A stretch of DNA of 64,000 nt, from NCBI GenBank assembly GCA_032718475.1, contig JAUCBJ010001154.1, positions 66,857-130,856 of the forward strand, written 5' to 3'. Below are positions 4,440-63,320 of the stretch, piece after piece (the first letter of the stretch is position 1; each line of letters begins with the position of its first letter). Position numbers and translations under genes: made by a program. Source of the stretch: Nemertoderma westbladi. Its lineage: Eukaryota; Animalia; Xenacoelomorpha. Under the pieces are notes generated by a model. That model was not told the DNA's origin. It made no database searches and worked only from the letters and a program-made list of their open reading frames with translations.

Positions 4440-4850
4440 CGCACTACTAGGATCGGCATGCTGCATTTTTAAGAATGCTGTGCCGGCTTGTCGACAAAAT
4501 TGCGCCGCCACAACTCCCTATCACCCATGACATTTGATAGATCATCCGCATCTTCAAGGCCAGTGTTCTTTAAGATGCGTCTCAAGAAAGTCATGGGTTG
4601 TCCACCATGCTTATTCACTCCATGAGGCTGCCAAAGTACAAGATTATGCACTGGCTGGTCCTCACGGCGAAAGCAATGTCCTGCAAAGCGGAGGCGACTT
4701 TGTTCTAGTGTCAAGCTTGCGGGAACCAATGAGACACCTCCAATGTTATATAGTGTCTGGTTGGAGATATGTGCATTGAACTTGACACAATGAACCCGGC
4801 GTAGCATTCTTGTGAATGTGCCATCCAAAGATTTGGTGTCCTCAGCAGTT
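4440..4850 (-). mobile_element. 5'-truncated RTE-type non-LTR retrotransposon 3' end
   Basis: DGTFTRMLRR...RLRFAGHCFRR...LVLWQP...MGDRELWR is a typical RTE-like ORF2 C-terminus. Near-identical copies at ~19900 and ~58320. Confidence 0.8.
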
Positions 4851-5270
4851 AGTTAGTTAGTTATTGAATTTAATTGAATTGGGATTGAATTGTCATACGG
4901 TATATTTCACTGTATTGTTTGTTTAGATTTTGAGTGATCCACATATTTTTGTTTTTTTAAGTATATTTTTTTTATGAATTCCTCGTTATGTTGTTCTATC
5001 ATTGCAATGAAAGATGTTAAAACAATGCGGGCTAATATAACAACTAAGTTATTAAATTTCTGAATTATCACTGCGGAAATTCGTTCTCCATTTAATCTGA
5101 GAACCCATTGAATAACGATGTCATGACGCAAGTTGGTGTTTTCTGGCTACCAAATCTTAATTGTAAAACTTCTTAATAGTCTCTCCTGTACACACGCTAG
5201 AATGACAAACCATCCACCATCTGACAAGCCACCCTAGTCGAGCGTGGCGTTGCGTGGTGGGGGTGGGGGA

Positions 5271-6797
5271 CTACGTTTCAACTAAGTTCCATTGCATAAG
5301 CACTGCATCAGGGCCGCCTACGGTAATGAGCTTGGAACCCCGAAGGAAACGAACATTAGTAACGTTCCCGCTGGTGAGTTTAGTTTCGAAGAACTGAGCG
5401 CGCCGACTGGCGCACGGGTAGCGGTAGATCCGTAGGTATCCCTGCGTGTCCCCAACCGTTAGCACGTCCCGCTGCGGCTCGGCCCTATCGCAGCAGTTCA
5501 CGTCGACGCCCAGCTGCAGTCCGGGCCATATCCCCGCGACGTGGTAGCCCAGTATGCAGGTGTGCGAGGCCCAATCAACGTCACGTGACTCTACCCCCCT
5601 CGCGATCTGTCGCAACTGCGCGGCGTCCCAGTAGTAAATCCTGTAGTCCCCGGTCACAGTCTGCATGTAGGAGTTGTTACCAGACCAGTCGATGTGCGTT
5701 ACAAACGTGCTATGTCCGGTCAGCTGTCCGCTTTTACGGTACGACGACCCGGCATCCTGCACCTCGAACAAATAAACATTGCAGTCGTGGCTGCTCGCAG
5801 CTAAAGCTCGCCCATCAGGACGGAAGGAAAGGCAGTCCAGTTGCTCTATTCCGATCTGGTAGCTTGCCATGTGGATGCCAGAGACGGCGTTGAGAACGAT
5901 AATTCGTCCCACGGTCGTTCCCAAAGCAATGCTTTTACCTTGTGGATGAAATGACGCTGTTAGACACGGCTTCTCCACCATTGCTTTCCAGATAGGTTTG
6001 CGTGAGTCGAAATCCCACAAGATAGCCTGCAGATCATACCCGGCCGTCATAAACTTGGCCTCTGTGGGATGCACGCACAAAGCCCACACATCCTGCGTGT
6101 GTCCTTGCACCGTGTATCGAAACTTTGTTTGCATAGATCCCTCTAGAATGGCGTTATGAGTCGTCCCGATGTATATTGAACCATCGAGACCGCCGTCTCG
6201 ACCCGCCACGATCGTTCGAATCCCTCCGGCGGTCTCCGGCAATGTCCGACCCGACATGGCGCTGGTGAAACCACCCGTGGAGTCCCACGCTATAATCCGC
6301 CTGTCGTAACCGCCCCCCGATAGCAGGGTGCCGTCGTCCAACACACATAGAGAGTATAGAGCCTGCTCGTGAGCGTGTTGGATGCGGTGTTTAACTCGGT
6401 AGGCGTTGATGTTATCGCAGGACCACACTGTAATAGATCCTGACGAGTCCCCCGTTATTAAACTCTCGTCTGCGGTGAACGCTATGCTCGTTATGTAATC
6501 GGGAACATCTGTCCCGAATATGCCGCTCTTTTTATCTCGTAAAAGTTTGCCATCGAGGAGTTTCCAGAAGTATAAATGTTGTTTCCCTGCAGTAATTATT
6601 GTTCTCTCGTCGTACGGCTGGAAAGCCCCAAGAACCACCGTCTCTGGGTGAGTTTTCGACCGCGCTAACAATCGTTCTTCGTCCCAACTCCATAGTAACA
6701 ATGAGTGGTCGCCCTCCCCATCAATAGCTAGTAGCCAATCACCGCGGTTGGATTGTTTCGAGAACATTGCTACTGCGACATCTCCTGTAAACATGTC
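5271..6797 (-). CDS. DCX-EMAP/EML-like gene, coding exon 3 (WD40 beta-propellers of the TAPE domain, stop codon)
   Basis: EML-type WD40 motifs (GHTQDVWAL, GHSTFVTHIDWS, VNCCDR, LRIYRYPC, LITVGG). Acceptor ttttatccgcAG at 6798; phase 0 matches exon 2. Confidence 0.92.
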   Translation of the reverse strand, partial: DMFTGDVAVAMFSKQSNRGDWLLAIDGEGDHSLLLWSWDEERLLARSKTHPETVVLGAFQPYDERTIITAGKQHLYFWKLLDGKLLRDKKSGIFGTDVPDYITSIAFTADESLITGDSSGSITVWSCDNINAYRVKHRIQHAHEQALYSLCVLDDGTLLSGGGYDRRIIAWDSTGGFTSAMSGRTLPETAGGIRTIVAGRDGGLDGSIYIGTTHNAILEGSMQTKFRYTVQGHTQDVWALCVHPTEAKFMTAGYDLQAILWDFDSRKPIWKAMVEKPCLTASFHPQGKSIALGTTVGRIIVLNAVSGIHMASYQIGIEQLDCLSFRPDGRALAASSHDCNVYLFEVQDAGSSYRKSGQLTGHSTFVTHIDWSGNNSYMQTVTGDYRIYYWDAAQLRQIARGVESRDVDWASHTCILGYHVAGIWPGLQLGVDVNCCDRAEPQRDVLTVGDTQGYLRIYRYPCASRRAQFFETKLTSGNVTNVRFLRGSKLITVGGPDAVLMQWNLVET

Positions 6798-7014
6798 CTG
6801 CGGATAAAAGAACAATTATTTTAAACAATTAAACTACCATTTTAATATACCCACCCACCTTTACACTGTATTGTATTTCAATTTCTTGTCTTCTTTCCGA
6901 TTGATCTTTTGCATATTTTTTTAATTAGTCAAATTTCAATATTATTCTTATCTATTGTATAATATAATTGTATAATAAGTTGTATCCACACTTATTTCAT
7001 TTAGGCCATAAAAT

Positions 7015-7119
7015 AGTTGTGGGGCGAGCCACGAAGTTGGCGGAGCCTTAGCGAATTGACACTGTTAGAGGGTGGGTCAATTTATGCAAATAGTTGTCGT
7101 CGTCGTCGTCGTCGTCGTT

Positions 7120-7158
<39 letters not shown>

Positions 7159-8035
7159 GTCGTCGTTACGATTTTGACATGCTAATAACTTTGTCGGATT
7201 TAAAGCTGCCAAGTTGAAAATTTGTAGGTATCAATATGAGCAAAAGTTGAGATTTTTGAGAGACTTTCAGACACCATCAGTGCAATGGTCTCCCGCTAGA
7301 GGGCCACATGTCTAAACATTAAATGCCCTCCCATTTCTTTGCTTTTAATCCGTTTAAGCTGAAACTTGGCAGATATGTATTAGACCATTAGCTGTGACTT
7401 TCAAAGGAGGCGAATCCATCTGCAGTTCTCCAGTCTGCCGCTAGAGGGCCAAATGTCTGAAAGTGAAATCGTTGTCGTCGTTATGATATTGACATGCTTA
7501 TAACTTTGTCGAATTTAAAGCTGCCAAGTTGAAAATTTGTTTTGTTGAAAATCAGTTCAACAGTCACCCGCTATAGGACTACTTTATGCCTGAAAGTGAA
7601 TAGATTCTCCCGTCTCATTGATTTTAATCAGTTTAAGCTGAATCTTGCCATATATTCTGGACCACATGCTGCGTCTTTGTGGGGGGGGGGGGGGGGGGGG
7701 GGGAGAGATTTAATCGGTCTGCCGCTATACGACGAAATTTCTGAAAGTGAGATCCGTCTCTCATTTCGTTATCCGTTATTCAAGATGAAACTTGGCCGAT
7801 GTACGTATGTACTATTCATCCATAGGCTGTGTCTTTGTGGGGCTGGAGACCCTAATCCATCTTCAGTTCTCACTATACCGCTAGAGTCAGAAATGTCTGA
7901 ATAGAAATGAAAGAGGTAAAAAGTGATTAGGCGAAATCTGCTTAAAATTTGCTAATACAGTAATACTTTCGAATTAGTACTTAAATTAAATTTAAGTCAC
8001 GTGCTGCGCGAAGGCCCCACTTCGTGTAACTTATA
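7015..8035. mobile_element. Non-autonomous interspersed repeat with (CGT)n tract and internal CCGCTAGAGGGC subrepeats (Helentron/DINE-like, unassigned)
   Basis: Starts TGTGGGGCGAGCCACGAAG and ends GTGCTGCGCGAAGGCCCCAC. Related sequence at 15410-15905, 48910-49258 and ~52485. Microsatellite at 7094-7166. Confidence 0.55.
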
Positions 8036-8943
8036 CAGGTAAATCAAATCTTTCAGTTTGCCTCTACCAACCATACATCATTCATTACTTTACCGGGACT
8101 TTTCTATTGTTAATGTTATCTTATTTTTAATAAGATTATTAGTTATTAAAAGAATTACACGCACAAATGTAACAAACTTTATTGCTCGCGAACTCTGTCA
8201 TCTATATTACCGGTAATTCAAATTTGAAAGAGATTTTCACTAAATTAATGTCAAAATTACTAAAAATAATCACTCACACTAAATAATTTATTAATCATTA
8301 AAAAACATTGTAAATCCACTAAAATTAATGATTTATCACTAAAGACAATCATTTATTCACTAAATATAATCATTATTATTTATTAAATAAAATATTTACA
8401 ATCACTACATCATCACACCAAATACCATCATATTGTTAGGCCCGCTACTTGAATTGTCTTGGTTGTTTCATTGTGTCACGATAAGTTCCTTGGGGTAGTA
8501 CGACCTGCCGCTCAGGTTCCACCGCGATATGTCACCAGGGGCGAAAGGTTCCTGCTGAAGTATTAGATTCCTTAGAAGAAAGGATCACGTTTGTAGAGGA
8601 GCAGGATACAGAGGCAGCGATAGGGGAACCAAACCAATAAACGAAAGTTAACGTGCAGGTTAGTAAAGAGTTACAATTAGGAAAAGATTTAACTAGGTTT
8701 AAAAAGGTTAAAAAAAAAAGGTTTAACTTTAAAGGGTAGAAATTACGTCCGTTAGGTTCTGCAGCGTTAGTTCCTTCGATTTTCAGGGAAAGGAACAGAT
8801 TACAGTGACATGTTATTCTAACAAAACAATAAATGAAAGTCATTAAATCGTTTTCTAGAATTCAGTTGTAAATCAGTTGTAAATAAAAATACAACATGCT
8901 ACAAAATATTTATAATACAAATACACGCAGGACCTAATGGGAG

Positions 8944-9542
8944 CAGAGATGGGGGCCGGTTTTTCACGACCCGGGCCCGTGCCCGTTAATTTTAATTTTC
9001 TAAAAATTACAGCATAAAATAAAATTTTAACTTTTATGATCAATTTGTATACACTGATTCAAATTACAATATCACTTTGTCATCGTGAGCCACTGATCTG
9101 GTAGTTTGTGGATTAGACGATACACACGTTGTGTAGGTCTGCCATGTTTACATTTACTGTATGTTTGTTGTTTAAAATGAAATAATGTGCGTGCCTCATC
9201 GTTTTAGTTTCGATTACTAACTACTATCAGTCTGTGTCAGACAGTATCTCAATTTCGATTCAATTGTTTATTTATAACAAAATTAAACAAAAACGCAACA
9301 AAAATAAAACAGTAACAAAGTTAAACAAAGACAAAAATAAATGATAAAACAACCCTAGTTATAATAAAATAAAATATACATGATAAAAAAATACATCATT
9401 TTGTGATAAAAAAAAGTGTAACAAAAATTTTCATATTTTTGTGTTTTGTTAACTGGATAATATAATTATTCAACAATAGCGGGCTTTCCAATAATTAGAA
9501 TGTGGCCCAAACCCGGCCTGGCCCGGCCCGTGTCCATCTCTG
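8944..9542. mobile_element. hAT-like MITE in EML intron 2
   Basis: TIR CAGAGATGG...CCATCTCTG, GGCCCG subterminal repeats, 8-bp TSD AATGGGAG/AATGGGAA. Confidence 0.7.
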
Positions 9543-10031
9543 AATGGGAATGACCAAAGGACCCAATGACGTGACCATTTAAAGCTGCAGTGGGACCTAA
9601 TGCGAAATGGAAGGTGATTATTTTTAGAGAAAAATGATTAAAATTTGTGGAATGTGAATAAATTTAGTGGAAAGTAATTAACTTTTAAATTAATTTAAGT
9701 GCAATATCATTATATTTAGTGGATAAATAATTAATATTGGAGCAATCTGGTCTCAGGGAGATGATAATGTTACAGTAACACGCTATTCTAACCAAAACAA
9801 TAAAATAAATTCAATAGCACAGGTTATAGTATATTTTTAAATCAGTAGTAATTTGTAATCAGCTGTTATTTGCGTCGATATTCCCCTGTAGAGGGATGAA
9901 ATTTGAATGTATCAGGTGCGCCCCTTAGCGGCCCCCTACAGTAGTTGATGTACACACAACGGGGTATTGCTCGCTACAATTTCAGCCCTGTTGGATATTA
10001 TTTCAATAATTAATTAATTAATTATATTTAC

Positions 10032-10479
10032 CATTCCCAATATTACGAGTGTCGATAGAGTAGCACTGCTCCATATGCGTATCGGCGCCACGTTGGGATT
10101 CCCCGATAGACTCGCTTGTTGCCCAGTAACCACAGTCTCCTGGTCTGGATGGACGTCTAGACAGGAAATATCCTCTGTGTGGCCGAAGTAGTGTCTCTGT
10201 TTGTCCAGATCCTGGTTGTATATCACGGCTACGGTACCCACGTGGTACACAATCTCAGAGGAACCCAAAGTGTGTAAGTTATTCCGGGTATCGTAACCAC
10301 GGTAACCGTATACCCAATCGAGAACCGGCTTGCGATCGGGCGGGAGGCCTTTCTCTTCCCATTGGGAAAGTTTGTCAGTTGAGGGAACGTAGAAGGACCT
10401 CTCCATCCCGTGAATGTTCACTGTTATCGTTTCTTCTAGATCATCAGCTGTGTCATCTCTATCAACCATTGCGTCGTAA
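10032..10479 (-). CDS. DCX-EMAP/EML-like gene, coding exon 2 (HELP motif + first WD40)
   Basis: PDRKPVLDWVYGYRGYDTRNNL is the HELP motif; QRHYFGHTEDISCLDVHP. AG at 10480-10481, GT at 10031; phases fit both neighbours. Confidence 0.92.
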
Positions 10480-10932
10480 CTATTATTGCGAAAACAAGAA
10501 ATTTAGTAAATTTAGGAACTTTATTATTTTAGACAATAAATATTTAAGTTTATTTTGTGGTAATTCGTAGGATCGTACAATACTGTATATTCCACATTCG
10601 ATAATAAAACGTAACGGAAAACACTCTTTTCCACTCATTTTCTTTAGCGAAATTCACAGATATTCCGCCCTAGTGTATTGAGTTTTTGTTGAGTTTGGTA
10701 TTCTAGTAAACTCCTGTAAAACTCAAGCGCTCGAACAGAATAGTTGAATTTGGCTAATCTGAAAATGAGTGAAAAAATCGGTGTACTCCGCTTACTTTTT
10801 ATAAGTTTAGTCCATTCCGTTCCGATGGCCTTAATCTTTCTCTCCAATGGTCCACATATATTTTACTCATATATATCTGCACTCAGTTTACCAATTCGGT
10901 TGTTGAACTGATATATCACTAACTGCACTCAC

Positions 10933-12818
10933 CTTACTAACGCATCCTGCGATATTGTACTCATCTCCCTTGAAGAGGATCCAAACAACTTCTGCCTTTC
11001 CGTGGCCCCGTCCGTGGTGGAAGCTTGGTACCCCGCTCCTCCGGTGTCTGTCTGCACTGTATCCGGTTTCCGGGACAACGAGTAGCTACCGCCGTATCCG
11101 TTGCGATGCTGGTCTTTATTTCGAGCGCTCCGCCCTTGATAATAATTAGACACTGGTTTGTCCACAGGGATCTCGTTTTGTATATGTGTTACATCTCGCA
11201 GCGCTTCGTGGCCACAACAAATGAATTTATCATTTTTCGCGCTGTCGCTTAGTAGTTGAGAGACGCTGGTGATCCTCCCGCCCGTCTGCATCGAGTACAG
11301 CCTACGAATCGGGGGGCTAGCCATGTGAATTGTAGAGCCCATCGAGTTTAGTATTTGTTCAAAAGTTTGTTTAGTTTTCGGGTGTATTAACACTCTGCCT
11401 TGACTTTGTCTGTGGGTGTTACTTACGACATTTATATACCGCGGCTTTGAAGTGTGAAACACAGGTTTCGGTGATCCATTGCCATCTTGCGACGATGATA
11501 ATGAATTAGAATGATCGCTTATCTCACGTCCTTTGTAAAGTAACGTGTCCGTCTGTCGTCTGCCCCCTCCCGGCTGGAGATTGACCCAATGATTCTCTTT
11601 GGAATCTCCATAGCGACAACCAATCACAAAGCTCCCGCTCGCACAAACGTATGATTTCTCGTGTTGTAGTTCTATGACCTCGTTCACTGGCTCTCCGTTC
11701 ATTTTGTATAGGTACCTCACCCCGCAAGGCAAAGATATCTTTTCACTTAGATAAACTAAAAGTGTCTCTAGAATTGGGAATTTTTTAAGGGAAATCGCCG
11801 TGGAGTAGCCGCGGAACTGAGAGTCCCCGTTGCGATAGAAATGGCACATATTGGCGCGATGGTGCACTATAAGTGGTAGACGCCTTTGTCTTACCTCGAA
11901 ATTCCTCGGTAGAGGAATTTCGACGTCCAAATCTCCGCTGTTTGGGCTTTCCAGCTCAACATCCTGTCGATTCAAATGTTTTTTCGTGTTCCTGTTTTCG
12001 CCTCTTTGAAGCCTGGGGATTTGGCTCCGAGAACGATCTCTTTGTGAGCGATTTGTTTGGTCAATAATGCTCCTCTTATTATCAAGTTCACCGTCGTAAA
12101 CAATAACTGGTATATTGTTTGCATCATTCATTGCTGTCCTCGACACATTGCGATTATGTGCGGGTTTCCTTGGTGATAGAACTTTCGCAGGGCTCCTGCG
12201 TATCGCGTAACTATCCCCCGCGATATCATCGGGTATTTCCTTGCGACCGAGTAGCGCCTGCGCGCGATACACTGCCGATTGTCGGGCCGGCAGATCCTCG
12301 ATATTTAGGTTGGTTCCCGACTTGGGCCGATCGCTTCGCAGCCCCGAACGCTCGCTGACGGCAGACCCGTACCGCGAACGCGGCCGGTCCCCTTGCGAGC
12401 CGATCACGTGGAGCGTCGAGGGATTTTGATCCCTGGGGACGGTGACCGAGATGGGGATCCTCACATCTTCGTTGTCGTCGACACCACGCGAACCATCGAC
12501 GAAATCCCACAGAGCTTCAACGTTAATATCAACGTCCTTTTGAGTGATGTCCTCTACAACGTTGATAACGTCATGTTTATTGGTCCTCGCTTCCAACAGC
12601 TGTCTGCCCTCAATATTGTAGTAATCGTTACCGATATTAATAGTTATTGTTTTCAAACCGCTGGTCCGTTCCTCTTGTAACGAATGTATCATGTATCCAG
12701 GAAGGCTAATATGGACAGGAATTGTTGTTGCATGGTTATCGGTGATCACTCTACTATCTTTATCTTGAGAGAACCGCTGATCACCCACATATACATCAAC
12801 ATTGTCTGTCTGACTCAT
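10933..12818 (-). CDS. DCX-EMAP/EML-like gene, coding exon 1 (low-complexity N-terminus + two doublecortin domains); joined CDS 3861 nt, 1286 aa
   Basis: DCX1: FYRNGDSQFRG...LPCGVRYLYKMNG...YVCAS. DCX2: KPRYINVV...TFEQIL...IRRLYSMQTG...FICCGHE. Donor GTGAGT at 10932; phase 2 fits exon 2. Confidence 0.87.
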
Positions 12819-13099
12819 CTTAACATTAACTAGAATACTTCACTGTATTAATATTATTATACTACTACTGTTTTTAAATGAATAGTTAGAGGAAAAGTGA
12901 GAATGGAAACGACTACAGTAATTTTATAAAGTGCTTTACTCCACTAATAATCGAAACCTCAGTGCAAGATATAATAGCACTAAACTAATAAAACTTAAAA
13001 ACGTTTTGATATTTACTTTATATCATCTTATATCGAAACGGTAGGATATGACATTTTGAATTGGTTATGTTATTGCCGTTGTGATATAATTTGTTCTGA

Positions 13100-15917: not shown

Positions 15918-16307
15918 TACGCTACTACTACTACTACTCTACTAGGTCGAGCGAACTCGGACAGTGGAAATGAGATCCTTCCAGGCTTCCCGATTCTCCA
16001 TAAGTTGTCGCAATTTCGTTTTTCCCAAGTTCAGTATCCCTTTCAAGTTGATCTATATATGTTATGGCCGGTCGTCCACGACTACGCTTTCCATGAGTTG
16101 GTTGCCAGAAAAGTAGATCTGGTATGACCTCGTCTTTACTTCGCCAGCAGTGCCCACTGAATCTTAATCTGCGTTCACGGAGGGTGGTTGATACAGGTGG
16201 TATTGTACCATAAAGCGCGGCGTTTGTGGGGCGAGACACGTAGTCGGCGAGCCTTTGCATACGGTTCATATAGGGCAAATGGGGCATGTCCGTCTGTCTG
16301 TCCGTCT

Positions 16308-16340
<33 letters not shown>

Positions 16341-17115
16341 GTAAATGTTTGAACGCGAATTTCTCGGCATCGCTCGTTCGGAATTGAACCAAACTTAGTA
16401 GGTAAGTAGTAGAGAGAAAGTTTAGAAATTTTGTAAAGTTTGGTGAAAAATCATGCAGTCTGACGTCAGCTACGACAGATTATGTGGTTTTTAGAAAATG
16501 TTAAATTTCTCGGGAAGGCCTCATTTTCCTGAGCTGAAATTTTGATGGCCTGTAGAGAATCATGAAGTCTATCTTTTACGAAATTGAAAAGTTAAGACAT
16601 TTAATTGGGGATCCGCTAGAGACTCAGAAGTAATGACATAGGCCTACCGGTACGGTACTGCTGTACAGTGGTGCACTGGTAAGTACGAAATTGCAGAATA
16701 ACAATTTGACACCACCTAGCGGATTAACATATGATTGTATATCGAATGAATACATTTATAGCATGGGATATGGGGTCCAAACTAGACATGCCCCATTTGC
16801 TCTATATGAACCGTATGCCAAGGCTTGCCGACTACGTGCTGCGCGAAGTCCCCACGAACGTGTCATGTGTTGTCTCCAGCTGATATTTAGGGCTGCCCTT
16901 AGTAGTCTTGTGTAGTCCATCTATTCGTTGTTCAAGTGATTTAGTCAGTGTCCAGGTATAAGAATACAAAGAACTTAGTCTTCAGGTACCTGCAGAGATC
17001 TGATTTCCAGATGGTATCCATTTTTGATAGAGCTACCCAAGCCTTTGCTTTCCTAACTTCTATGTCCTTTTTGCTACTCTCTATCCATGATCCTAGGTAC
17101 TGGAAGTCGGTAGTA
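15918..17115 (-). mobile_element. RTE-type LINE 3' fragment (second family) interrupted by a ~640-bp insertion
   Basis: DFQYLGSWI...KAWVAL..M..IWKS and YTRLLRAALNISW (16860-17115) continue as LYGTIPPVS...RRLRFSGHCWR...GRP (15934-16215). (TAG)n tail near 15920-15942. Confidence 0.8.
16222..16860. mobile_element. Non-autonomous element with long subterminal inverted repeats and GTCY microsatellite (DINE-1/Helentron-like)
   Basis: CACGTAGTCGGCGAGCCTTTGCATACGGTTCATATAGGGCAAATGGGGCATGTC (~16237-16290) is inverted at ~16784-16838. It splits the RTE ORF. Confidence 0.65.
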
Positions 17116-19879: not shown

Positions 19880-20395
19880 CTTAGGTCCGATTATTTAGAG
19901 CAGCAGTAGTTCCCGTACTCCTCTATGGGAGTCCATTCTGGGCTCTAACTGCTGAGGACACAAAATCTCTGGATGGCACATTCACAAGAATGCTACGCCG
20001 GGTTCATTGTGTCAAGTACAATGCACACATCTCCAACCAGACACTATATAACATTGGAGGTGTCTCATTGGTTCCCCCAAGCTCGACACTAGAACAAAGC
20101 CGCCTCCGCTTTGCAGGACATTGCTTTCGCCGTGAGGACCAGCCAGTGCATAATTTTGTGCTTTGGTGGCCTCATGGAGTGAATAAGCATGGTGGACAGC
20201 ATATGACTTTCTTGAGACGCATCTTAAAGGACACTGGCCTTGAAGATGCGAATGATCTAGCAAATGTCATTGGTGATAGGGAGTTGTGGCGGCGCAATTT
20301 ATTCGACAAGCCGGCACAGTATTATTAATATATATGTAATGTATATATATAATGGAGCTGCAATGCAGCATGCCGATCCTAGTAGTAGTAGTAGA
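19880..20395 (+). mobile_element. RTE-type LINE 3' end with (TAG)n tail
   Basis: RLFRAAVVPVLLYGS..WAL...DGTFTRMLRR...RLRFAGHC; same family as 4440-4850. Confidence 0.8.
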
Positions 20396-20798
20396 GTAAA
20401 TGTTTCGTACCTGTCACCATACCCGAACTGGTGCACTGCACATGTACCTTTATCAAAAGCGATAATAGCTAATCCAAGTGTCTAAATAAACTCATCCAAG
20501 GTGAATTCAGGAGGTTAAACAGTACTACATTATATCTCTCTCAATGATTTTAATTATTGATAGTAACAATGTGTTGGCAAGCTGTATTTTTCGAGGTGTT
20601 TGTTATTATACATTTATTATAGGAAGGGATCTAGGGGTCTTTACCTCGAATGATAAGTTTATTTTACCGAAAATAACTTATCTTTTATTGGCGCAATTGT
20701 AGGACTAATCCCATCACATGCGTACTTTTTAACCGGGTAGTGTACAAATTTAAGAATCGCGTAATTTTTCTTGAAATTAATATCTCATATCTCTCCAA

Positions 20799-20841
20799 AC
20801 CACGTACGCGTTTCGACCTTACTGGGTCTCATCAGCGTGGT
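20799..20841 (-). ncRNA. Minimal type I hammerhead ribozyme
   Basis: Minus strand ACCACG-CUGAUGA-GACC-CAGUAA-GGUC-GAAA-CGCG-UA-CGUGGU: intact core, stems I and II, palindromic stem III. Confidence 0.9.
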
Positions 20842-21211
20842 GTCGGATTCGAACCTGGGACCTCGAGGTGGAAGCCGAGACTACAACCACTAGGCCACAG
20901 GTTCTTGAGATATGGAGTATTAATTTCAAAGCCAGCTGCCATTTTATTAGCCCCTGAGTTTTTTGATTATTGATAGTAACAATGTGTTGGCAAGCTGTAT
21001 TTTTCGAGGTGTTTGTTATTATACATTTATTATAGGAAGGGATCTAGGGGTCTTTACCTCGAATGATAAGTTTATTTTACCGAAAATAACTTATCTTTTA
21101 TTGGCGCAATTGTAGGACTAATCCCATCACATGCGTACTTTTTAACCGGGTAGTGTACAAATTTAAGAATCGCGTAATTTTTCTTGAAATTAATATATCA
21201 TATCTCTCCAA

Positions 21212-21254
21212 ACCATGTACGCGTTTCGACCTTACTGGGTCTCATCAGCGTGGT
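21212..21254 (-). ncRNA. Minimal type I hammerhead ribozyme (one stem I mismatch)
   Basis: Same motif 413 bp away; the 3' arm of stem I reads CAUGGU instead of CGUGGU. Confidence 0.82.
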
Positions 21255-21321
21255 GTCGGATTCGAACTCTCGAATATCTCTCTCAATGATTTTAATACGA
21301 TGTTAAGATTTGATGATAAAT

Positions 21322-28444: not shown

Positions 28445-29300
28445 ATCCATGCGGAACTCATACTAAGAGATCCATGTGGAACTCATACTAAGGGATCCAT
28501 GTGGAACTCATATTAAGAGATCCATGTGGAACTCATACTAAGAGATCCATGTGGAACTCATACTAAGGGATCCATGTAGGACTCATTCTAAGAGATCCAT
28601 GTGGAACTCATACTAAGGGATCCATGTTGAACTCATACTAAGGGATCCATGTGGAACTCATACTAAGGGATCCATGTGGAACTCATACTAAGGGATCCAT
28701 GTGGAACTCATACAAAGGGATCCTTATGGAACTCATACTAAGGGATCCATGTTGAACTCATACTAAGGGATCCATGTGGAACTCATACTAAGGGATCCAT
28801 GTGGAACTCATACTAAGGGATCCATGTGGAACTCATACTAAGGGATCCTTATGGAACTCATACTAAGGGATCCATGTGGAACTCATACTAAGGGATCCAT
28901 GTTGAACTCATACTAAGGGATCCATGTGGAAGTCATACTAAGGGATCCGTGTGGAACTCATACTAAGGGATCCATGTTGAACTCATACTAAGGATCCATG
29001 TGGAACTCATACTAAGGGATCCTTATGGAACTCATACTAAGGGATCCATGTGGAACTCATACTAAGGGATCCATGTTGAACTCATACTAAGGGATCCATG
29101 TGGAACTCATACTAAGGGATCCTTATGGAACTCATACTAAGGGATCCATGTGGAACTCATACTAAGGGATCCATGTTGAACTCATAATAAGGGATCCATG
29201 TGGAAGTCATACTAAGGGATCCATGTGGAACTCATACTAAGGGATCCATGTGGGACTCATACTAAGGGATCCTTATGCAACTCATACTAAGGGATCCATG
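28445..29300. repeat. 25-bp minisatellite, ~34 copies
   Basis: Unit TCCATGTGGAACTCATACTAAGGGA. Confidence 0.95.
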
Positions 29301-29554
29301 TCATTACGGGTGTCACTACGGGCACCACTACGGGTGTCACTACGGCTACCTACTACGGGTACCGATTTCAGACTTTTGACAGACTACATGTGTACCATGA
29401 TTATTGATAGTAACAATGTGTTGGCAAGCTGTATTTTTCGAGGTGTTTGTTATTATACATTTATTATAAGAAGGGATCTAGACTATCAATAATCAAAAAT
29501 CAGGGGCTAATAAAATGGCAGCTGTCTTTGAAATTAATACTCCATATCTCAAGA

Positions 29555-29619
29555 ACCTGTGGCCTAGTGGTTGTAGTCTCGGCTTCCGCCTCGAGGTCCC
29601 AGGTTCGAATCCGACACCA
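29555..29619 (+). promoter_or_regulatory. tRNA(Gly-TCC)-like Pol III internal promoter (A and B boxes); not a functional tRNA
   Basis: A box TGGCCTAGTGG (29560-29570), anticodon-like loop CTTCCGC, B box GGTTCGAATCC (29602-29612). No acceptor stem pairing. Confidence 0.75.
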
Positions 29620-29658
29620 CGCTGATGAGACCCAGTAAGGTCGAAACGCGTACGTGGT
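29616..29658 (+). ncRNA. Minimal type I hammerhead ribozyme; predicted cleavage after GUA (A29652)
   Basis: ACCACG CTGATGA GACC CAGTAA GGTC GAAA CGCG TA CGTGGT. Confidence 0.9.
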
Positions 29659-31447
29659 TTGGAGAGATATGAGATATTAATTTCAAGAAAAAATTACGCG
29701 ATTCCTAAATTTGTACACTACCCGGTTAAAAAGTACGCATGTGATGGGATTAGTCCTACAATTGCGCACAAAAGATAAGTTATTTTCGGTAAACTAAACT
29801 TATCATTCGAGGTTAAGACCCCTAGATCCCTTCTTATAATAACATGTGTACCAAGTTCGGTTTATTTACGTGGACGGACTGACGGACAGACAGACTGATA
29901 GACCGCTCGACGAACAATGTTAGAAACATCGGACCCCGCATTCATAGATTACCACGGTATATAAGTCTTGGATGTGTCTATGATTGGCCCCTATAGGGAT
30001 CCATAAATGTTTTTTCTTTATGAAATAATGAAACTTTTTCCGAAATGTAAAAAAGTTACCTTTTTTTAATAATATGTACTAATAAATAACTTTGTATAAC
30101 TAACACACATTGGTATATTATAAATTATTTAAATATATTATACAACACAGTTGCTCTTAGTCATAAATACTGCAGCAAAATGATTATCATCTTATTATTA
30201 CTATGGTAACTATACTCTGAGCCAAAAGTAAACGTACTACTTATTAGCTCTGTTGATTAATTAAAGGAAAGGACCAGGTTACAGCGGCACGTTATTTTAA
30301 CCAAAACAATAATGGACGTGATACTACGTAAACTTTTGGCTCATAATAATATTGAATATAATATATACTGTAGTGTTAATTTAATATATTATGCACTAAT
30401 ATGCTTCGAGAATATAGTTTTACATTGTACAGTAGTTGTGTAACTTCGAAACAATTAGACAAAGCAATTAGTTGTTTTTGAACAATCTGCTAGCAGCAAC
30501 GTTTTTTTATAAATATCACTATACACATTTTAATAGCTGACATTATAATATTATATATGGGAAAAAACACTAAATTCAGATAGACAACCGCTTAGCTCGA
30601 CATTAAATAATAAATTGCACATACTATATCATACCAAGCTACTCTACAGAGATTGTCGAAGCCAACTTCATAAGAAAACAAATACGTAAACATTCATTAC
30701 CATTTAGTTTATCTGTCGTTTGTTTTTGATGGATGAAACACAAAATATGAAAAAATAACTATGTTTTTAGACCACTTTTATTAAAACTACCAACAACTGC
30801 ACCTACATCGCGACGACGACGATATGGTTGGTTTTATTAACAATCTTGTAACAATATGCAAATAGCATTTTACTGGGGGGTCGGGTAGCGCCCCCAAATA
30901 CAACTTTTCATTGTGACGTTTCCGCAGCCTAAAATTGAGTGAAAATTGAAGTTAGTGCTACCAAATATCGTCTGGGGAGTTTAGGAATGGCCAAACCAAT
31001 TTTTGTTGGGAGCCTTTTTGCTGGGCCTTATTCAAATGAAAATATCGTGCTGCTCGAAGGCTTGTCAAAAAACAGAATAGCTTTTACGTTTTAACCAATA
31101 ACTCTATAGTTTCAGAAATAGATATAGATAATAGATATGAGAAATATGCTTGCAGATTTGAAATCGGCATTACATTCGGCACAGGATAGGATCATATTCA
31201 AAAATACGGGGTCGCTACCCCCCCCCCCCCCCCCCCCCTTAATTAAAGATTTTTCACTTTACAAATAGAGTCATCACATCAACTTCTAATTTTGTATTGC
31301 GCAACTTGTTTACTTACCGTAAAATAAAATAATATTCGTATAATAACTGAACTACTGCACCTATTACATTACTTACACGTTGTAAGTAACAATCACTACT
31401 GCTTGTAATGTTGTTACTGTAGACTTACTGTATGAGTATACGTAGTA

Positions 31448-31911
31448 TCAATAGGCACAGGGTGTGTTGTGTTCCAGTTCGCCAGTCATCCAACCCAATT
31501 CTCCGTAAGTGTAACCGTGGTCTGGTCTCATTCCCGGCGCATTCATTCCCCCAGGGGGCCCCAGTCGAGGGCCTTCCCCTATGCTGATGGGCCCACCCGG
31601 TAGACACGGCACTGTTGAGAGGTTCGGGTGAAGGTAGGGGGGCGCGTTCTGATTGGCTAATAGTTGTGGAGGAAGTACAGGGGAAAATCCCAAGGGGAAA
31701 CAATTGGAGGGGGCGCTAGCCATTCGGTTGCAGAAGTACTGATCGGGGGAGGGGAATATTGCGTCCACTGGGACGGCGTTAGTGGTGGAAGGCGACACAT
31801 TGTGATGGCCAATAGTTGATACCGATAAGTCGGCGCTAGGAGGCGTACTACATTCGGATGGCGACATATTGTGTTGTAACTTGTTGCCATTATTGTTGTT
31901 TTCCATTGAAG
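31448..31911 (-). CDS. LHX3: LIM homeobox Lhx3/4, last exon (Pro-rich C-terminus)
   Basis: Acceptor tattttcAG at 31912; phase 1 fits the previous exon; open to the stop at 31448. Confidence 0.8.
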
Positions 31912-31975
31912 CTGAAAATAAAAAGAAAAAAAATGAATCATTCGTGGTACAAACCAGAATTATATTTTACAAGAG

Positions 31976-32110
31976 TAATGGTAAACTGTAATGGTAATGG
32001 TAAACTGTAATGGTAATGGTTAACTGTAATGCCGTAATGGTAATGGTAAACTGTAATGGTAATGGTAAACTATAATGGTAATGGTAAGCTGTAATGGTAA
32101 TGGTAAACTG
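31976..32110. repeat. 19-bp GGTAAT-rich intronic tandem repeat
   Basis: GGTAAACTGTAATGGTAAT x ~7. Confidence 0.85.
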
Positions 32111-32160
32111 TCTGCTTTCAATTTATACATTCAATGAGTTTATTTATATGATTTACTTAC

Positions 32161-32295
32161 AGTCAAACTCTCCGGAGAAACAACTCAACGGAGATGATGG
32201 CGGCGAATCCATATTGTCGAGAATATCGCTTCGGTTCATTATTCTAGAACGCTTAGATGGGCGGGAAATACCGTGGTGCGTAAATGAATTAGCGC
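32161..32295 (-). CDS. LHX3: Lhx3/4 internal exon after the homeodomain
   Basis: AG at 32296-32297, GTAAGT at 32160; 135 nt open frame ANSFTHHGISRP...GEFD; phase 1/1. Confidence 0.78.
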
Positions 32296-32412
32296 CTTAA
32301 ATAAATATTAATGTTTTGGTTGTATTTGTAGATATAGATGATATACGTAATATAATGAAAATAAAAAAACAATTACTTATTGATGGATTAAATGTAAATT
32401 GTAATTAATTTA

Positions 32413-32754
<342 letters not shown>

Positions 32755-32840
32755 TTAGTAAACTTATTGTTGCAAAGCATGGATTTATAATTCTAATAAA
32801 TCAATGATCCGTATGTATATGTAAGCAGCTGGTTTATTAC

Positions 32841-33043
32841 CTCTTTGCCTCGCCAATTCGTAGTCAGCTTTGCACATTAGTTTATTATCCTCCATTAGGT
32901 AGAACTCGTCCCCAGTTGCCAACTCGCGTCGACACAGCACGCACACGAAACAGTCGAGATGGTAGGTCTTATCCTGAGCCCGTCGGACTATCTCCGTAGA
33001 TGGGATCCCTTTATCGCAACCGGCGCAACGCGTACCAAACCGA
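32841..33043 (-). CDS. LHX3: Lhx3/4 LIM2 exon
   Basis: RFGTRCAGCDKGIPSTEIVRRAQDKTYHLDCFVCVLCRRELATGDEFYLMEDNKLMCKADYE; canonical AG/GT; absent from the ORF track. Confidence 0.95.
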
Positions 33044-35429
33044 CTAAATAAATTAACGATTTATAATGTTTAACGTTTGTTTGCACACCATCCACTCAAA
33101 AAGCGACAGATTTAACAAACAGTAATATATTTATTTCAAATTTACTTTAATCGTTATTCCAGTATTTCAGGAATAACTATTTGAATATTCCTACGAATAA
33201 ATTTATGGAAATGAAACCGAGGGATCTTATTTTCTTTAAAATGGCGATTTTCACCTTCAAATTTGTCTTAAACAAAAACAATAAAATAACGGATGTTCTA
33301 GTACCGCGATATAACATTGCTGTAACATCTGCTATCTGTATCATCAGTAACCGTTATTTATTTTCATTTATAGTATTTAGGGGGTCTGGTATTGTCAGAC
33401 ACACCACATATCCATCGTCTACAGGTACTACATGGGAGCCAAGTGTGAATGAATCCGGGATGCTTTACAAGTACTACGTTGCGGAGCGTTGGTCCACTGT
33501 GGGCGAGGGAAGGTGAAACAGTAATATTGTCTATTGTGGAATTTATAATAACGTTTTACATGAAAATTAAATAGCTTTATTTCCCGCATCATCCATTGAT
33601 ATATAATTATCCGGTTGACCGATATCGCTCGGCAAATTATAAATCTCGGGGATTTCGGGAAAAAATAATCATAATAATAGTGATTTCCATCTCATCATAA
33701 TTTAAATTGGAATTTAATTTATTTTTAAAGTTAGCAATCGTCGGGCAAAAATTAGGCAAATTGTCCTTGTGCATATCAGTTACCACGGGTTTCGTTATAG
33801 TTAAGTTGACCTTGTTCACTGCTCGACGAGGCGGGTTTGTCCTTGTGGAGGCGGCGTTCGATTAGGAGCGGTTACTATCGGAGTTATTGCTCCATTTGTC
33901 ATCTTTTAGTTGATTCGGACCAACACCTACTGCCCGAAACCCATTAACAGATTGTGCTACAAACCTGACCCACGCTCCGCGCTCTCGCGGCCTTTAATCA
34001 TGGCCAAGCGCATTTGTATATCGCGAGTCGGTCAATGATTGTATGGCGCTGGGCCAAGCGGATCAAGCGGGCCTTTAACATGGGGGCTATGTGTCGCGTG
34101 GCGAGGTTTACCTGAGAGAAAGTTGGCCTAATCCGTCGCGTGCGGTTTCACGGCCAAGCCATAATCAATCCCCACTGATGCCGGAATATTCTCAGGGTGA
34201 ATGGGGCGGGATCGCGCGCGAATCTAGGCGTTATGTTTTCATTGTGTATAATCATACAGAGGCCATAGTGCGTTAGCGGCATCTCTATCTCTACCCACCC
34301 GGCACAACTTAATGAGCTTTGGGAACCCAGCCTACACATTATACATCGAGTTAAGTTCGTAAAACTTTTCTAAACTTAATCTCTACAAGGACAAAAGACG
34401 GAGATTTACTCTAAGCTCTTTCCAGAATTTTCTTAATTCCCGAAGCATTGGTTATATAGGAACTGCGTTCGGCTTTATTTATTGTACGACCGGTTGTATT
34501 GCTTCACTCTCAAGACAGATTTGTGAGTTGGCTTTCAGGCAGGCTCAAAGTTTATTTCGATGCGTAGGTTTAAAGGCATCAATGGGAGGTTGAGTTTAGG
34601 CAAGCCAAGGTTGCCCTTGTCAGGATGTCACTGTGAGTAAATTGATTAGTTCGGTACCTTCGGAAGGTAATCCCTAAGCATAATTCGTGGTGGAGTTACT
34701 GGAGTTGGAGAGATTTATAGGAGACAAGGTTGGCATAATACTAACTCGACGCGTCCAGCTTTCCCTTAGGAATAAAAATGCTAAAGAAAATAAACACACC
34801 ACAAAGGCCAATTTTTGCCGAGTCAAGAGAAGAGACTACATCACATAGAGTCTTCCGTACTCTTCTCCACAATAAAAAAAAGTTAATAAAATCAATGTGA
34901 TCCACTAAACGCGAACTACATAATTACGATCTCCGCGATATCGTTTATTTATTGATGCTGTTTTGTTTACTTCAAATAAGTCATTTCATTGTAGGTCAAG
35001 TAACATGGTTTCAACAATGGTTTATTGAAATTAGTGTCTTTTGACTTACGGGTTTTTACTATTTGCAGAAAAGGCGCGAAATTTTCAAATTGAAATTTCA
35101 CCAAGTGACTTGCGGCTTTTGTCATCATATGGCTGTATCCTACGGAATTAAAGCAGAATTTAATGAGGATTTCAAATCTGAACATGACTTGGCGAGATCT
35201 GTTTCTATGCATTTTCATTAATCACCTGAAGAAGCCCTCCTGATGGGAGAAATCTAGTAATCTAACTGTTGTTACTAATTCCATTAGTCATCTGAGGTCA
35301 ACCCGCCCTACCTTAACTGTTTAGTATAATTCCTTCTTAAGTGCTTTAAGCGAAACGAGATCGCTTTTAGATTTCGAGTTATCACTGTTTCTCCATGTCC
35401 GCCGGTCTGACCGTCAACATGTAAGTTTA

Positions 35430-56452: not shown

Positions 56453-57736
56453 TTACTCACCAACACGGCCACAAGCGCAAAGGGCCATTAAAGCAAACAA
56501 AAAAGGCAGAATGGTCAAACTAAGCAATGAAGCTGCCATTTGGAATCCGCAATCATCAATTAGAATCCCACCAAATAGCGCACCTAGTAAAAAACCAACA
56601 GAATATGAGATTCTAAGAGCTTGTTGAAGAACAGCCCTGGTATCAATGTTGTCGGGGTGACCGCATACTCTAACAGCCAGACGAGTTTGTGTTTCAAATG
56701 CAGGAATCGACATTAACCCGGCTCCCAATCCATATATAGCCAAGGAGCTTAAAGATATGTTTAAGGAGTAAGGTATTCCCAATATCTCAGTTGGCCCTAC
56801 GAGTTGCATTGTGCCAAACATTATTGTTCCACCAATAAAAGTTGGGTATATTGTATTGAAATTGAACTTCTTAATCAAAACCGTTATTATGAGAGCGATA
56901 CAAGTCTCGCTCACTGGTTGAATCGTATATGCTAAACCAATATTATATTGGTTAACATAATAGTAGCTGTGAATATAAGAAGCATAATAAGCCACTGTGA
57001 AATATAACATCATTGTATTGTAGAAGTGGAATATATAGATTATTGTGATTGCTGGGTTCTTCAGCAATCCGAGATATGTTGGTCGTCCCTCATTAGATTC
57101 ATCTCTATCGTAAAGGTAAGGAGGAGCCTCGAGCCAGCAGTAAAGAACACCAATGAGAAACATCAAACTCGATATGATAAATGGATATTCAAAACCCATT
57201 GAAGCAAAAACGGCTGATCCGAAAACTGGAGCGATAGCATAGCTGACCGCGGAAAGAACAATTGATATACCAGCTAAGAAACTTCTGTGGTTTGGCATCA
57301 ATTCCATTAATAAATTGTAGGAGTAAATGTAACTGATGTTGAGACCTATTCCTTGTATCAGGCGCAGCAAAAAGCATGTGAATATGTGTCCTCCGTTGTT
57401 AGGAATGTATTCTACAAATCCAAAGAGTAACTGGCCGATCGTTCCAATCACACCGGATATTCCTAAGGAACTTCGCGTTCCCCAGTTGGTGATGGAATGC
57501 GGGAAACCAATGTAAATAATGATCTGTACGAGGGGATAGATAGCAAACAGGGAACCAATGAGGGTCTTAGACCAACCACGCTTTTCCACAACGATAGGGA
57601 AAAATGTTTCTAGCAGAGTCATGGCCCATCCGGGTATTAACTGGAATACCATCAGTAAAGAAACCAACACAGTAAGTCTCCATCCATGAGGTTTATTTGT
57701 TGGAGTTTGGTTAAGAGAAAGTGTTTCATCCAACAT
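56453..57736 (-). CDS. Intronless MFS transporter, SLC18B1/vesicular amine transporter-like (427 aa)
   Basis: About 12 hydrophobic segments; TFFP...G.SKTLIG.LFAIYPL, LLRLIQGIG, IAPVFGS..F...GF..PF, G.LLGALFGG.L.D..GF. First ATG at 57736. Confidence 0.85.
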   Translation of the reverse strand: MLDETLSLNQTPTNKPHGWRLTVLVSLLMVFQLIPGWAMTLLETFFPIVVEKRGWSKTLIGSLFAIYPLVQIIIYIGFPHSITNWGTRSSLGISGVIGTIGQLLFGFVEYIPNNGGHIFTCFLLRLIQGIGLNISYIYSYNLLMELMPNHRSFLAGISIVLSAVSYAIAPVFGSAVFASMGFEYPFIISSLMFLIGVLYCWLEAPPYLYDRDESNEGRPTYLGLLKNPAITIIYIFHFYNTMMLYFTVAYYASYIHSYYYVNQYNIGLAYTIQPVSETCIALIITVLIKKFNFNTIYPTFIGGTIMFGTMQLVGPTEILGIPYSLNISLSSLAIYGLGAGLMSIPAFETQTRLAVRVCGHPDNIDTRAVLQQALRISYSVGFLLGALFGGILIDDCGFQMAASLLSLTILPFLFALMALCACGRVGE

Positions 57737-58317
57737 TATGAATATCAAATAATTTTAATTTTGATTTGAATACAAAACTGTTCTAATGTTTATTGTGTTT
57801 ATTTGTTTTATCTCACAAGGCTTATTATAAGCGGTATAATTCCTAGAAGGTTATTGCTGATTCTCCACTTGTCTCTTAAACTAAACATTTATTATAAAAG
57901 GTCATAAAAATAATTTCATCAGCTGCTGAAAAATTGGTTGGTGGATTAGGTACAATGAGTGGGTGGTGCCGTAGGGTTGCAACAGTTGTTAGTTGATAGA
58001 GGCATATAACGAACAATACCAACAATTATTGGGAAATAATCCCTCTGTTTTACTTGTATTGTTTTTATTGGTTACAACAGCCGGTCTGATATTGGTTTTA
58101 TTGAAATTGGAAATTACTACTTTAGGTTGAGCCACATCAGATCTCTTATGTGTAGGTTGGAAGAAAAGGTTGGAGACGTTAGGCATCGTGACGTTTTCGG
58201 TTTGTCATGGTATGCCACAGTCGTAGACATGTACTGTACACCGATCACACATTCGTTGGGCCGTCGCGTACTACTCACCTACTAAAGTTTGATTTAATTC
58301 CGAACCAGCGATGCTGA

Positions 58318-58785
58318 GTATGGGAGTCCATGCTGGGCTCTAACTGCAGGGGATACCAAATCTCTGGATGGCACTGTCACAAGAATGCGGCGCCGGGTTC
58401 ATTGTGTTAAATACAATGAACACATCTCAAATTAGAGTCTATACAACATTAGAGGTGTTCCATTAATCTCCCCTTGCTTGACACTTGAACACCGCCTCCG
58501 CTTTGCAGGACATTGCATTCGCCGTGAGGACCAGCCAGTGCATGATCTTGTGCTTTGGCGCCCTCATGGAGCGAATAAGCATAGTGGACAGCCCATGACT
58601 TTCTTGAGACGCATCTTAAACGACACTGGCCTTGAGAATGCGGATGATCTAGCAAATGTCATGGGTGATAGGGAGTTGTGGCGGTGCAATTTAGCCGACA
58701 AGCCGCCGCAGCATTCTTAATATATATGTAATATATATATATAATGAGGCTGCAATGCAGGATGCCGATTGTAGTAGTAGTAGCG
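58318..58785 (+). mobile_element. RTE-type LINE 3' end with (TAG)n tail
   Basis: RLRFAGHCIRREDQPVHDLVLW...MGDRELWR; same family as 4440 and 19880. Confidence 0.8.
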
Positions 58786-62064: not shown

Positions 62065-63320
62065 TTGGCCAACAAACTAGAAAACTTGAATATGAAAATT
62101 CTATCCTGGAATATAAATGGCATCAATATTTTCAGAAATACGGACGTTCAAACCTTCATCAATTCAAATTTTGATTTAATTTCCTTATGTGAAACTCACA
62201 CAATTATTGCGCAATCCACTATAAGCTTGCCGAACTACGTTACATCGAAATTTCCCGATACAAAATGCAATGCGGACTTCCCGCGAGGTGGGTGCTTTCT
62301 AGCTATTCGAAACTCGATGAGGGATATTATAATCTCAGTTTCACAATTTCATACCGACTGCATTGAAGTACGATTGATTAATGGTTTTTGTCTAGTTTTT
62401 GCTTAATGTTTTTGCAACACATCGCCGTATTTTAATGAGCATTACTTTTCTTCATTAGATGCCCTGATTACTGAAACTGATAATCACAGAAAACCGACTA
62501 TAATTGTTGGTGATTTTAACTCTAGGATTGGGGAACTGGGTCGCTACGATGTTTCTGGAAAGAAAATTTGCTCAAAGAATCCTGATGCTTCAGTAAACCA
62601 AAATGACAAGGACTTAAAAAAACCTAATCTCCAGCTGTCAACTAACTTCTGTAAACCACTTAAATAAAAACCATGGCGGGTTTACTTTAGGTAGGTATAT
62701 GTATATACGTGTATATACGTATGAAATTGGTCTCCTCTCAAATTGATAATGATAAAATGGCTGTTATACTCAAGGAGAACTTACCCGACCTAATAGCCGT
62801 CCCTCTATTGGACAACTCTATCACAACCACATCGAAAACAATAATGTTCCAGAACATGTTTCTTCAAGCTGCTAAAAACTCATTTCACAAAATAAAGCGT
62901 AACACTGTTAACTTTGAAAGTCATCTAAACGCAGAATCACTCCTGGTAGACTTTGATCCAGAACAACTGTCTTATCCACCGATTCGACTTGAAGTACACC
63001 AGAAGGACTACATAATATCCGTTACGCGCAACGAGTTCAACAATTGGGTTGATTGTTTAAAGTCAGCTGATTCCCGCTAATTATGGAACGCTATTGACTT
63101 CAAAGGAAGATACGTTCAAAGTAGCCAATCTCAAGTGGGAAACGATGTCTCATTTGAAAGCCTGGCTAAACATCTTAAAACTCTGGGAAGCATTGATGAT
63201 GCAGAATATATCCTCGCTAATATTGAAGGGACAAGCAACCAATCTATGGTGTAATCAAATGTATGCTGACTACAGGACTAGACTGGGACATCCAGACGTA
63301 TATTACTCATCTCAGACTTA
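62065..63320 (+). pseudogene. Decayed non-LTR retrotransposon ORF2, apurinic endonuclease region
   Basis: MKILSWNINGI, DLISLCETH, RGGC..AIR and IIVGDFNSRIG (~62500-62530), with stops and frameshifts. Confidence 0.8.

Follow-up and report, generated by a model that had tools for sequence, protein, structure and literature searches.

Metazoan non-LTR retrozymes are characterised, in passages of PMC7229834, as non-coding units of 150-450 bp that each carry one type I hammerhead, occur in tandem, have a GC content below 50% and are flanked by TSDs of more than 4 bp. A circular template and mobilisation by Penelope-like elements (PLEs) have been proposed for them (parts of PMC7229834 and bioRxiv 10.64898/2026.07.22.740005), animal retrozymes have been argued to derive from PLEs (part of bioRxiv 10.64898/2026.07.22.740005), and non-LTR retrozyme repeats carry no motif pointing to a mobiliser (PMC7761336). 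In the portions of these sources that bear on the question, support so far for PLE mobilisation of animal retrozymes consists of co-occurrence, a common ribozyme type and pLTR homology in frogs (PMC7229834, PMC7761336, bioRxiv 10.64898/2026.07.22.740005). In the Schistosoma families Sm-alpha and Sj-alpha, a tRNA-derived polymerase III promoter lies directly before the hammerhead, often in tandem, and in the Sm-alpha model the cleaved RNA is reverse-transcribed as a monomer (passages of PMC6765202 and PMC2770079).

A PLE protein studied in vitro cuts and extends both target strands, both from the same two adjacent internal start sites and without target homology; the interval between these sites forms the genomic tail, and its main substrate is uncut RNA (PMC11167929). 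Among genomic PLE copies, partial tandems occur, an arm can be inverted and 5'-truncated, and a tail of 30-40 bp may be present at one of the two ends; rotifer examples have TSDs of 8-10 bp (parts of PMC8557442 and PMC3846280). Inverted PLE junctions carry a palindrome (part of PMC3846280), and PLE hammerheads are of minimal form (part of PMC4209133). An inverted conformation is also named for twin-primed L1 copies, which can show duplications at the inversion point (part of PMC12350158). The retrozyme class, the Sm-alpha layout and the PLE insertion anatomy are each already known; in the open-access literature searched, we found no retrozyme described as having either fixed internal start sites or double-primed inversions. 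Here we describe two insertions of one repeat in a stretch of 64,000 nucleotides of Nemertoderma westbladi DNA, referred to as the window.

Anatomy of the two insertions

Insertion 2 (29386-29853 with its TSDs) holds a partly inverted copy, 444 bases long, of an abundant repeat in which a tRNA-like segment occurs alongside an RNA motif predicted to cut itself. Positions in the repeat unit (U) are defined from insertion 1, where the period is 413 nt: U equals 20966 minus the window position, so that U1-413 is counted downwards from 20965 and U413 is the 3' end of insertion 1. The left TSD of insertion 2 (29386-29397, plus strand) is an exact 12-bp repeat of the right TSD (29842-29853, plus strand), with a chance probability of ~3e-5 allowing ±10 nt at both ends. 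Between them, alignment places a short arm of 84 nt on the minus strand (29398-29481, U332-415) and a long arm of 360 nt on the plus strand (29482-29841, U402-413 followed by U1-351). The outer end of the short arm (29398) lies 2 nt beyond the major end site of the repeat, which appears as end piles at 29400/29401 and 20966/20967, and the long arm ends in a minor end cluster at U351-362, with piles at 21017-21021 on insertion 1 coordinates. Read in the short-arm sense, a TSD is followed by the long arm in inverted orientation, then by the 3' arm in direct orientation and the second TSD, as priming from both target strands would give; for L1, the twin-priming mechanism was reportedly set out by Ostertag and Kazazian in 2001.

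Together, the two arms span the whole 413-nt unit plus two overlaps. Where the long arm runs past the start of the short arm, a 14-nt overlap (29482-29495, plus strand) is an exact inverted repeat of 29398-29411, and where the short arm runs past the start of the long arm, a 20/21-nt overlap (29461-29481, minus strand) is an exact inverted repeat of 29822-29842, with its last base common to the TSD. An uncommon allele at U344 is present in both copies of the 21-nt overlap (29469 and 29834) and accounts for ~3% of summed contig depth, which is not copy number, in two of the sequencing runs considered below (X1 and X3). At the inner junction (29481|29482), U332 of the short arm abuts U402 of the long arm; the arms have no point of the unit in common there, and neither microhomology nor any added base is present. 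The long arm spans the unit junction, continues over the tRNA-like head and passes the predicted cut site. The short arm has neither target homology (alignment score 0) nor poly(A). The L1 target consensus, TT/AAAA, is absent at this insertion. The start of the right TSD imperfectly resembles the unit just beyond the long-arm end, with 7 of 413 circle positions matching as well by alignment score and 62 of 413 by duplex energy, and the empty target site has no other occurrence within the window. Since the long arm is flush with the TSD, the copy appears to have formed during integration, and the anatomy supports double priming on a template that exceeded a single linear monomer. The preliminary description of a full, partly inverted unit between 12-bp TSDs with overlapping junctions is borne out by the exact TSDs and exact inverted-repeat overlaps, as is its statement that the ends lie away from the tRNA head (U66-132) and the hammerhead cut (after U161), the ends being U415 and U351; its two-arm layout also holds, and its arm lengths of 85 and 359 are each off by one. 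Insertion 2 sits between a 25-bp array (34 copies), a 12/24-bp array and a GACG/GACA microsatellite (28445-29385, 29854-29915), and these arrays may be an older repeat element.

A blastn search of the window with insertion 2 returned one further insertion of the same repeat, at 20553-21273 on the minus strand. Insertion 1 (20532-21296) holds 1.73 units with the 413-nt period between 23-bp TSDs on the minus strand, one at 20532-20554, which has 2 nt in common with the unit end, and the other on the 5' side at 21274-21296. The full unit (20553-20965, minus strand, U1-413) ends at the major end site and has its hammerhead at 20799-20841. The 5'-truncated upstream unit (20966-21273, minus strand), with its hammerhead at 21212-21254, comprises U112-413 and six non-contiguous bases (21268-21273). 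Its truncated and full units show 2 differences in 302 nt. Insertion 1 passes two intact predicted cut sites within one cDNA, and its 3' end lies within 2 nt of that of insertion 2 (U413 and U415). When its target is compared with the template at the 3' end, 8 of 413 positions are as good by alignment score, and the duplex-energy ranks of the target-template matches are unremarkable (62 and 114 of 413). The six bases at the 5' junction resemble a unit stretch ~10 nt upstream and may reflect a template slip.

The repeat unit and its relatives

The unit has a GC content of 39%, gives no Pfam match in any of its frames, and is continued across the unit junction in contigs, many of which show it joined end to start with a length of 411-413 nt. 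A degenerate tRNA-like segment (29557-29623, plus strand, U66-132) was returned by ARAGORN at a relaxed 80% threshold only, the default threshold giving no tRNA in the window. Its A box (29560-29570, plus strand, U69-79) and B box (29602-29612, plus strand, U111-121), spaced 42 nt, were assigned by consensus and are taken by us to be a putative RNA polymerase III internal promoter. The sole T4 run of the sense unit (29783-29786, plus strand, U293-296) may be a weak polymerase III stop. The candidate type I hammerhead (29616-29658, plus strand) matches Rfam HH9 with 26.6 bits and an E-value of 2e-4, below the gathering score of 52, at which Rfam gave no matches over the window. It has a helix I of 6 bp, a helix II of 4 bp and a short palindromic helix III, with the cut predicted after 29652 (U161), and its core motif and folds are present in all three unit copies. 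Cofolding of a dimer through a common helix III gives -31.7 kcal/mol versus 2 × -11.7 for the monomers, and the modelled hammerhead matches the dimer-dependent motifs described in part of PMC4209133.

A long rod (29528-29686, plus strand), formed by an inverted repeat with arms at 29528-29550 and 29664-29686, encloses the tRNA-like segment and the hammerhead. Computed on the insertion 1 copy, the rod fold has a z of -5.7, with 0 of 200 shuffles as stable; the circular unit fold has a z of -3.7 (60 shuffles). In the circular fold, a stem-loop spans the unit junction and places the major site in an A/C-rich loop, and 8 of its 9 pairs have probabilities of 0.9-1.0, but this feature is not relied on because shuffled sequences of the region fold just as well (z -0.44). 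An A6-7 tract directly follows the major end site U413. Three ATAAT motifs (unit positions 350, 361 and 413 in 20553-20965, minus strand) each end at or beside a recurrent 3' end.

By all the features testable here (predicted hammerhead, tandem unit size, GC content, lack of coding and TSD), the repeat is, on its sequence, a non-LTR retrozyme; a member of this class would also be expected to cleave itself and to accumulate as circular RNA. Like described members of that class, it is non-coding, 413 nt long, tandem and 39% GC, with TSDs of 12 and 23 bp and no LTR; it differs from them in its tRNA-like A/B-box segment, its defined internal 3' end sites and its inverted arms. The words "inverted" and "SINE" are absent from the main text of PMC7229834. 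The likeness to Sm-alpha is one of layout, with tRNA-like A/B boxes followed by a hammerhead in the same order. Set against the Sm-alpha model in the passages cited above, the genomic ends of the repeat lie 190-250 nt past the cut and its copies read through the cut. Classical tRNA-derived SINEs, which begin at the tRNA head, differ as well, in that both window copies include sequence upstream of the tRNA-like head. As for the poly(A), simple-repeat or LINE-derived tail of such SINEs, neither copy has a tail, and a comparison with the local RT-like fragments gave no match. Twin-primed L1 inversions, as depicted in part of PMC12350158, are alike in having one TSD pair, a direct 3' arm, an inverted 5' arm and a small duplication at the second priming point. 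The repeat differs from them in its lack of poly(A), its recurrent second site, and its second overlap at the far end, which is impossible from a single linear monomer.

In insertion anatomy, the repeat is like endonuclease-bearing PLEs (Poseidon PAc, PMC11167929; Adineta Pen2a, PMC3846280; scheme in PMC8557442), which share the partial tandem, the inverted 5'-truncated arm, a variable TSD and a hammerhead away from the insertion end, and whose two internal starts, with an optional tail at one end, may correspond to the two end sites seen here. In these terms, insertion 1 is a PLE-type partial tandem and insertion 2 has one end with a tail and one without. Unlike PLEs, the repeat has no ORF, its two sites are 51-62 nt apart in place of a 30-40-nt tail, there is no palindrome at the inverted junction, the hammerhead helices are canonical and not minimal, and the long arm of insertion 2 wraps past the start of the other arm. 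Pfam gave no RT or GIY-YIG match in the 118 frames of 72 or more aa in the window. A search of viral contigs for the pattern of a B box with a hammerhead core behind it gave no match, and blastn against phages gave none; a single B box and hammerhead core match in metagenome contigs is GC-rich and cannot form the helices, and was taken as chance.

Ends and inversion joints across the family

Family-wide ends were read from Logan contigs of sequencing runs. Of the eight runs listed, none of them recorded as RNA, X1-X4 were aligned to insertion 2, and X1 and X3 were aligned also to insertion 1, whose stretch used for alignment is continuous across the unit junction. X1 and X3 belong to different studies, X1 and X2 come from one sample, and the window itself may derive from one of the runs. 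On insertion 1, 23 + 7 of 327 partly aligned contigs leave the repeat at U413/U412 in X1, and 22 + 10 of 320 do so in X3, with the loose ends running into unrelated flanks (agreement 0.40-0.47). A uniform spread, as a crude null, would give ~0.36 contigs per place and side, against which the pile at U412-413 has a Poisson p of ~1e-32. On insertion 2, 25, 29 and 24 + 11 contigs, out of 364, 366 and 329, leave at this major site. A second cluster lies 51-62 nt upstream, where the insertion 1 alignment has 4 contigs at U360 (X1), 6 at U362 (X3) and 7 at U358 (X3). On the insertion 2 alignment, 6 X1 contigs leave at U351 (29841), the exact end of the long arm, and a short way past U352 a further 17 contigs leave in X1 and 23 in X3. 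The other end of insertion 2 falls in this cluster, and both of its outer ends are thus at recurrent end sites of the family. The piling of 3' ends at U412-413 and U351-362 indicates that priming is site-specific and internal.

The 5' side is different in character, with at most 2 contigs in any row among the 12 of 403 loose-end rows listed for insertion 1, and with 5' ends and inversion points dispersed among the rows listed. No pile at the tRNA head or the cut site is present among the rows listed (18 of 616 on insertion 2 and 12 of 403 on insertion 1), and ~90% of the partly aligned contigs on insertion 1 end away from the major site. Permuted endpoints, which had been expected beforehand from a circular or multimeric template, are contradicted for the 3' ends by the pile at U412-413 and the second cluster at U351-362. 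From the opposite pattern, in which all copies share fixed linear ends, a common 3' end is found, and a common 5' end at the tRNA head is not seen among the rows listed. Copies that read through the cleavage site, also anticipated, are present in the long arm of insertion 2 and in insertion 1.

Joints within contigs point to further inversions. On the insertion 2 alignment, 7 of the 15 joints listed (95 in all) have a sense arm following an antisense 3' arm, and 6 of these 7 occur in both studies, and five further antisense-to-sense joints are among the 12 of 58 rows listed; on insertion 1, 3 of the 15 joints listed (36 in all) are opposite-strand. The sides of the seven inversion-type joints are only 20-30 nt long, and none recurs among the 15 of 36 joints listed on insertion 1. 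Other inverted copies of the repeat are likely to exist, although not firmly so. In X4, which carries a different organism label and is RNA by guess only, the unit forms one unbranched 441-nt contig with a 411-nt period and a 30-nt terminal overlap, a closed cycle aligned over 29412-29842. This cyclic contig is no evidence for a circle, because a low-depth tandem array would look alike.

Insertion mechanism, alternatives and surroundings

We consider it probable, with considerable room for doubt, that the repeat is an Sm-alpha-like non-LTR retrozyme inserted by a PLE enzyme that primes both target strands on read-through RNA. The Penelope-type insertion suggested in the preliminary description gains support on new grounds, namely two recurrent internal end sites, the partial tandem and the inverted arms. 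In this mechanism, tandem copies would be transcribed, possibly by polymerase III from the A/B boxes. A hammerhead with a short palindromic helix III would cut efficiently only as a dimer, so that multimers would be cut to monomers and circularised, and a monomeric circle would be stable. The PLE reverse transcriptase-endonuclease would nick both target strands 12 bp apart, and both nicks would be primed at the two preferred internal start sites of the repeat on read-through RNA. One cDNA would start at U415 and extend for 84 nt. The other, begun at U351, would reach a length of 360 nt by copying back past the cut site, then the head and finally the unit junction. If both were made on a single circle, each enzyme would meet the start of the other and stop after displacing 14 and 21 nt, so that the arms would sum to one unit plus two small overlaps, and the two cDNA 3' ends would be joined without microhomology.

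As the cut site, the head and the junction all lie within the long arm, a linear monomer released by the hammerhead could not have been its template without jumps, and nor could a transcript that began at the head. The earlier proposal of inverted reverse transcription on a circular or multimeric template accordingly stands as far as double priming and a template of more than one linear monomer are concerned, on the evidence of the flush TSD, the read-through and the common U344 allele. As to its form, given the PLE mechanism, we put a circle slightly above an even chance and an uncut multimer slightly below one. A circle would account for both overlaps at once and for the passage of insertion 1 through two uncut dimer-type sites; an uncut multimer also works. 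The short overlap partly follows from the fixed second site, which leaves one coincidence, estimated at ~1 in 20. When 12 inversion joints were mapped on the unit, one long arm extended to U18 and one to at least U403, and since the other 10 stop far short of the full unit, the fit to one circle is a single case. It is therefore only tentatively, and with the balance leaning against it, that insertion 2 may be read as the footprint of two PLE reverse transcriptases on one 413-nt circular RNA, with two fixed starts and stalling 14 or 21 nt after the start of the other, and the family as a polymerase III-driven, circle-templated PLE parasite. Fold-back self-priming was rejected, as the sequence beyond the 14-nt repeat is that of the following unit and not the TSD.

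Among other explanations, a LINE enzyme (L1/Tx1 or RTE type) could prime internally, in the A-rich tract that follows U413, on RNA in multimeric or circular form, with twin priming by chance microhomology giving the inverted arm. This origin we regard as unlikely but deserving serious weight, since the A6-7 tract right after the major site keeps LINE-type internal priming alive, and the AT-rich flanks in the loose ends, the imperfect target-template matches at the insertion 1 3' end (8 of 413) and the insertion 2 long-arm end (7 of 413), the RT-like fragments with (TAG)n tails in the window and the duplications known at inversion points of twin-primed L1 (part of PMC12350158) all agree with it. 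However, the short arm of insertion 2 lacks target homology and an A tail, the long-arm end falls in a recurrent cluster that would not be expected from chance microhomology, and the duplex-energy ranks (62 and 114 of 413) do not stand out. Moreover, the unit does not resemble the (TAG)n-tailed fragments of the window, partial tandems of the insertion 1 kind are characteristic of PLEs, and the RTE target signature described in part of PMC6007223 has no clear fit to either insertion site (n=2).

Much less probable is that the inversion arose by later DNA rearrangement of an ordinary copy or by an assembly error between repeat copies. No independent contigs cover 29481|29482 or the unique flanks in the four runs aligned, an absence of cover that proves nothing but leaves room for such an error in an abundant family, and the allele common to both arms also fits a DNA-level duplication; against this stand the outer breakpoint of the inverted arm flush with an intact TSD, the position of both outer ends at recurrent family end sites, and the antisense-to-sense joints in other contigs. 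A PLE-like insertion layout, together with the relation of Xenopus retrozymes to pLTRs (part of bioRxiv 10.64898/2026.07.22.740005), would also be expected if the unit were a collapsed autonomous PLE, with its end repeats kept and its coding middle lost, and the insertions were ordinary PLE stubs. We hold this to be very improbable, given that the frame starting in the hammerhead core stops after 15 codons, that no unit frame has a Pfam match, and that the unit has a tRNA-like segment and is self-closing at 411-413 nt in many contigs. Priming of circular RNA at random positions, giving permuted ends, would suit the dispersed 5' ends and inversion points among the rows listed and the copies that read through the cut site, but it is hardly credible with 3' ends piled at U412-413 in two studies and both window copies ending there.

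If PLE double priming is correct, fixed internal starts combined with double-primed inversions would provide junction-level evidence of the mobiliser. The template could be tested in the same way, as a monomeric circle, unlike multimers, should make each arm of a double-primed copy stop close to where the other began. The family is abundant and diverges by a few percent, so a single assembly would suffice for counting its junctions, and the in vitro assay published for PLEs could take the 413-nt RNA as its substrate. Should the circle footprint be true, the junctions would be a direct record of the mobiliser as well as of the circular template, both of which have been proposed for animal retrozymes.

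The surrounding frames have Pfam matches to EML/doublecortin, LIM-homeobox and MFS proteins and mark the window as animal DNA. LIM and homeodomain frames of a LIM-homeobox gene lie at 31451-33060 (minus strand), with insertion 2 ~1.6 kb beyond the likely last exon, and doublecortin, HELP and EML beta-propeller frames at 5274-12839 (minus strand) apparently form one gene with few large exons. RT-like C-terminal fragments followed by (TAG)n tails, which we presume to be RTE, are present at 4472-4852 (minus strand), 15937-16479 (minus strand), 19885-20400 (plus strand) and 58722-58783 (plus strand), with no Pfam match, and insertion 1 lies ~140 bp after one of them. A weak endonuclease/exonuclease/phosphatase match at 62407-62664 (plus strand) may be a LINE fragment, and a single-frame MFS transporter of 433 aa is encoded at 56456-57754 (minus strand).
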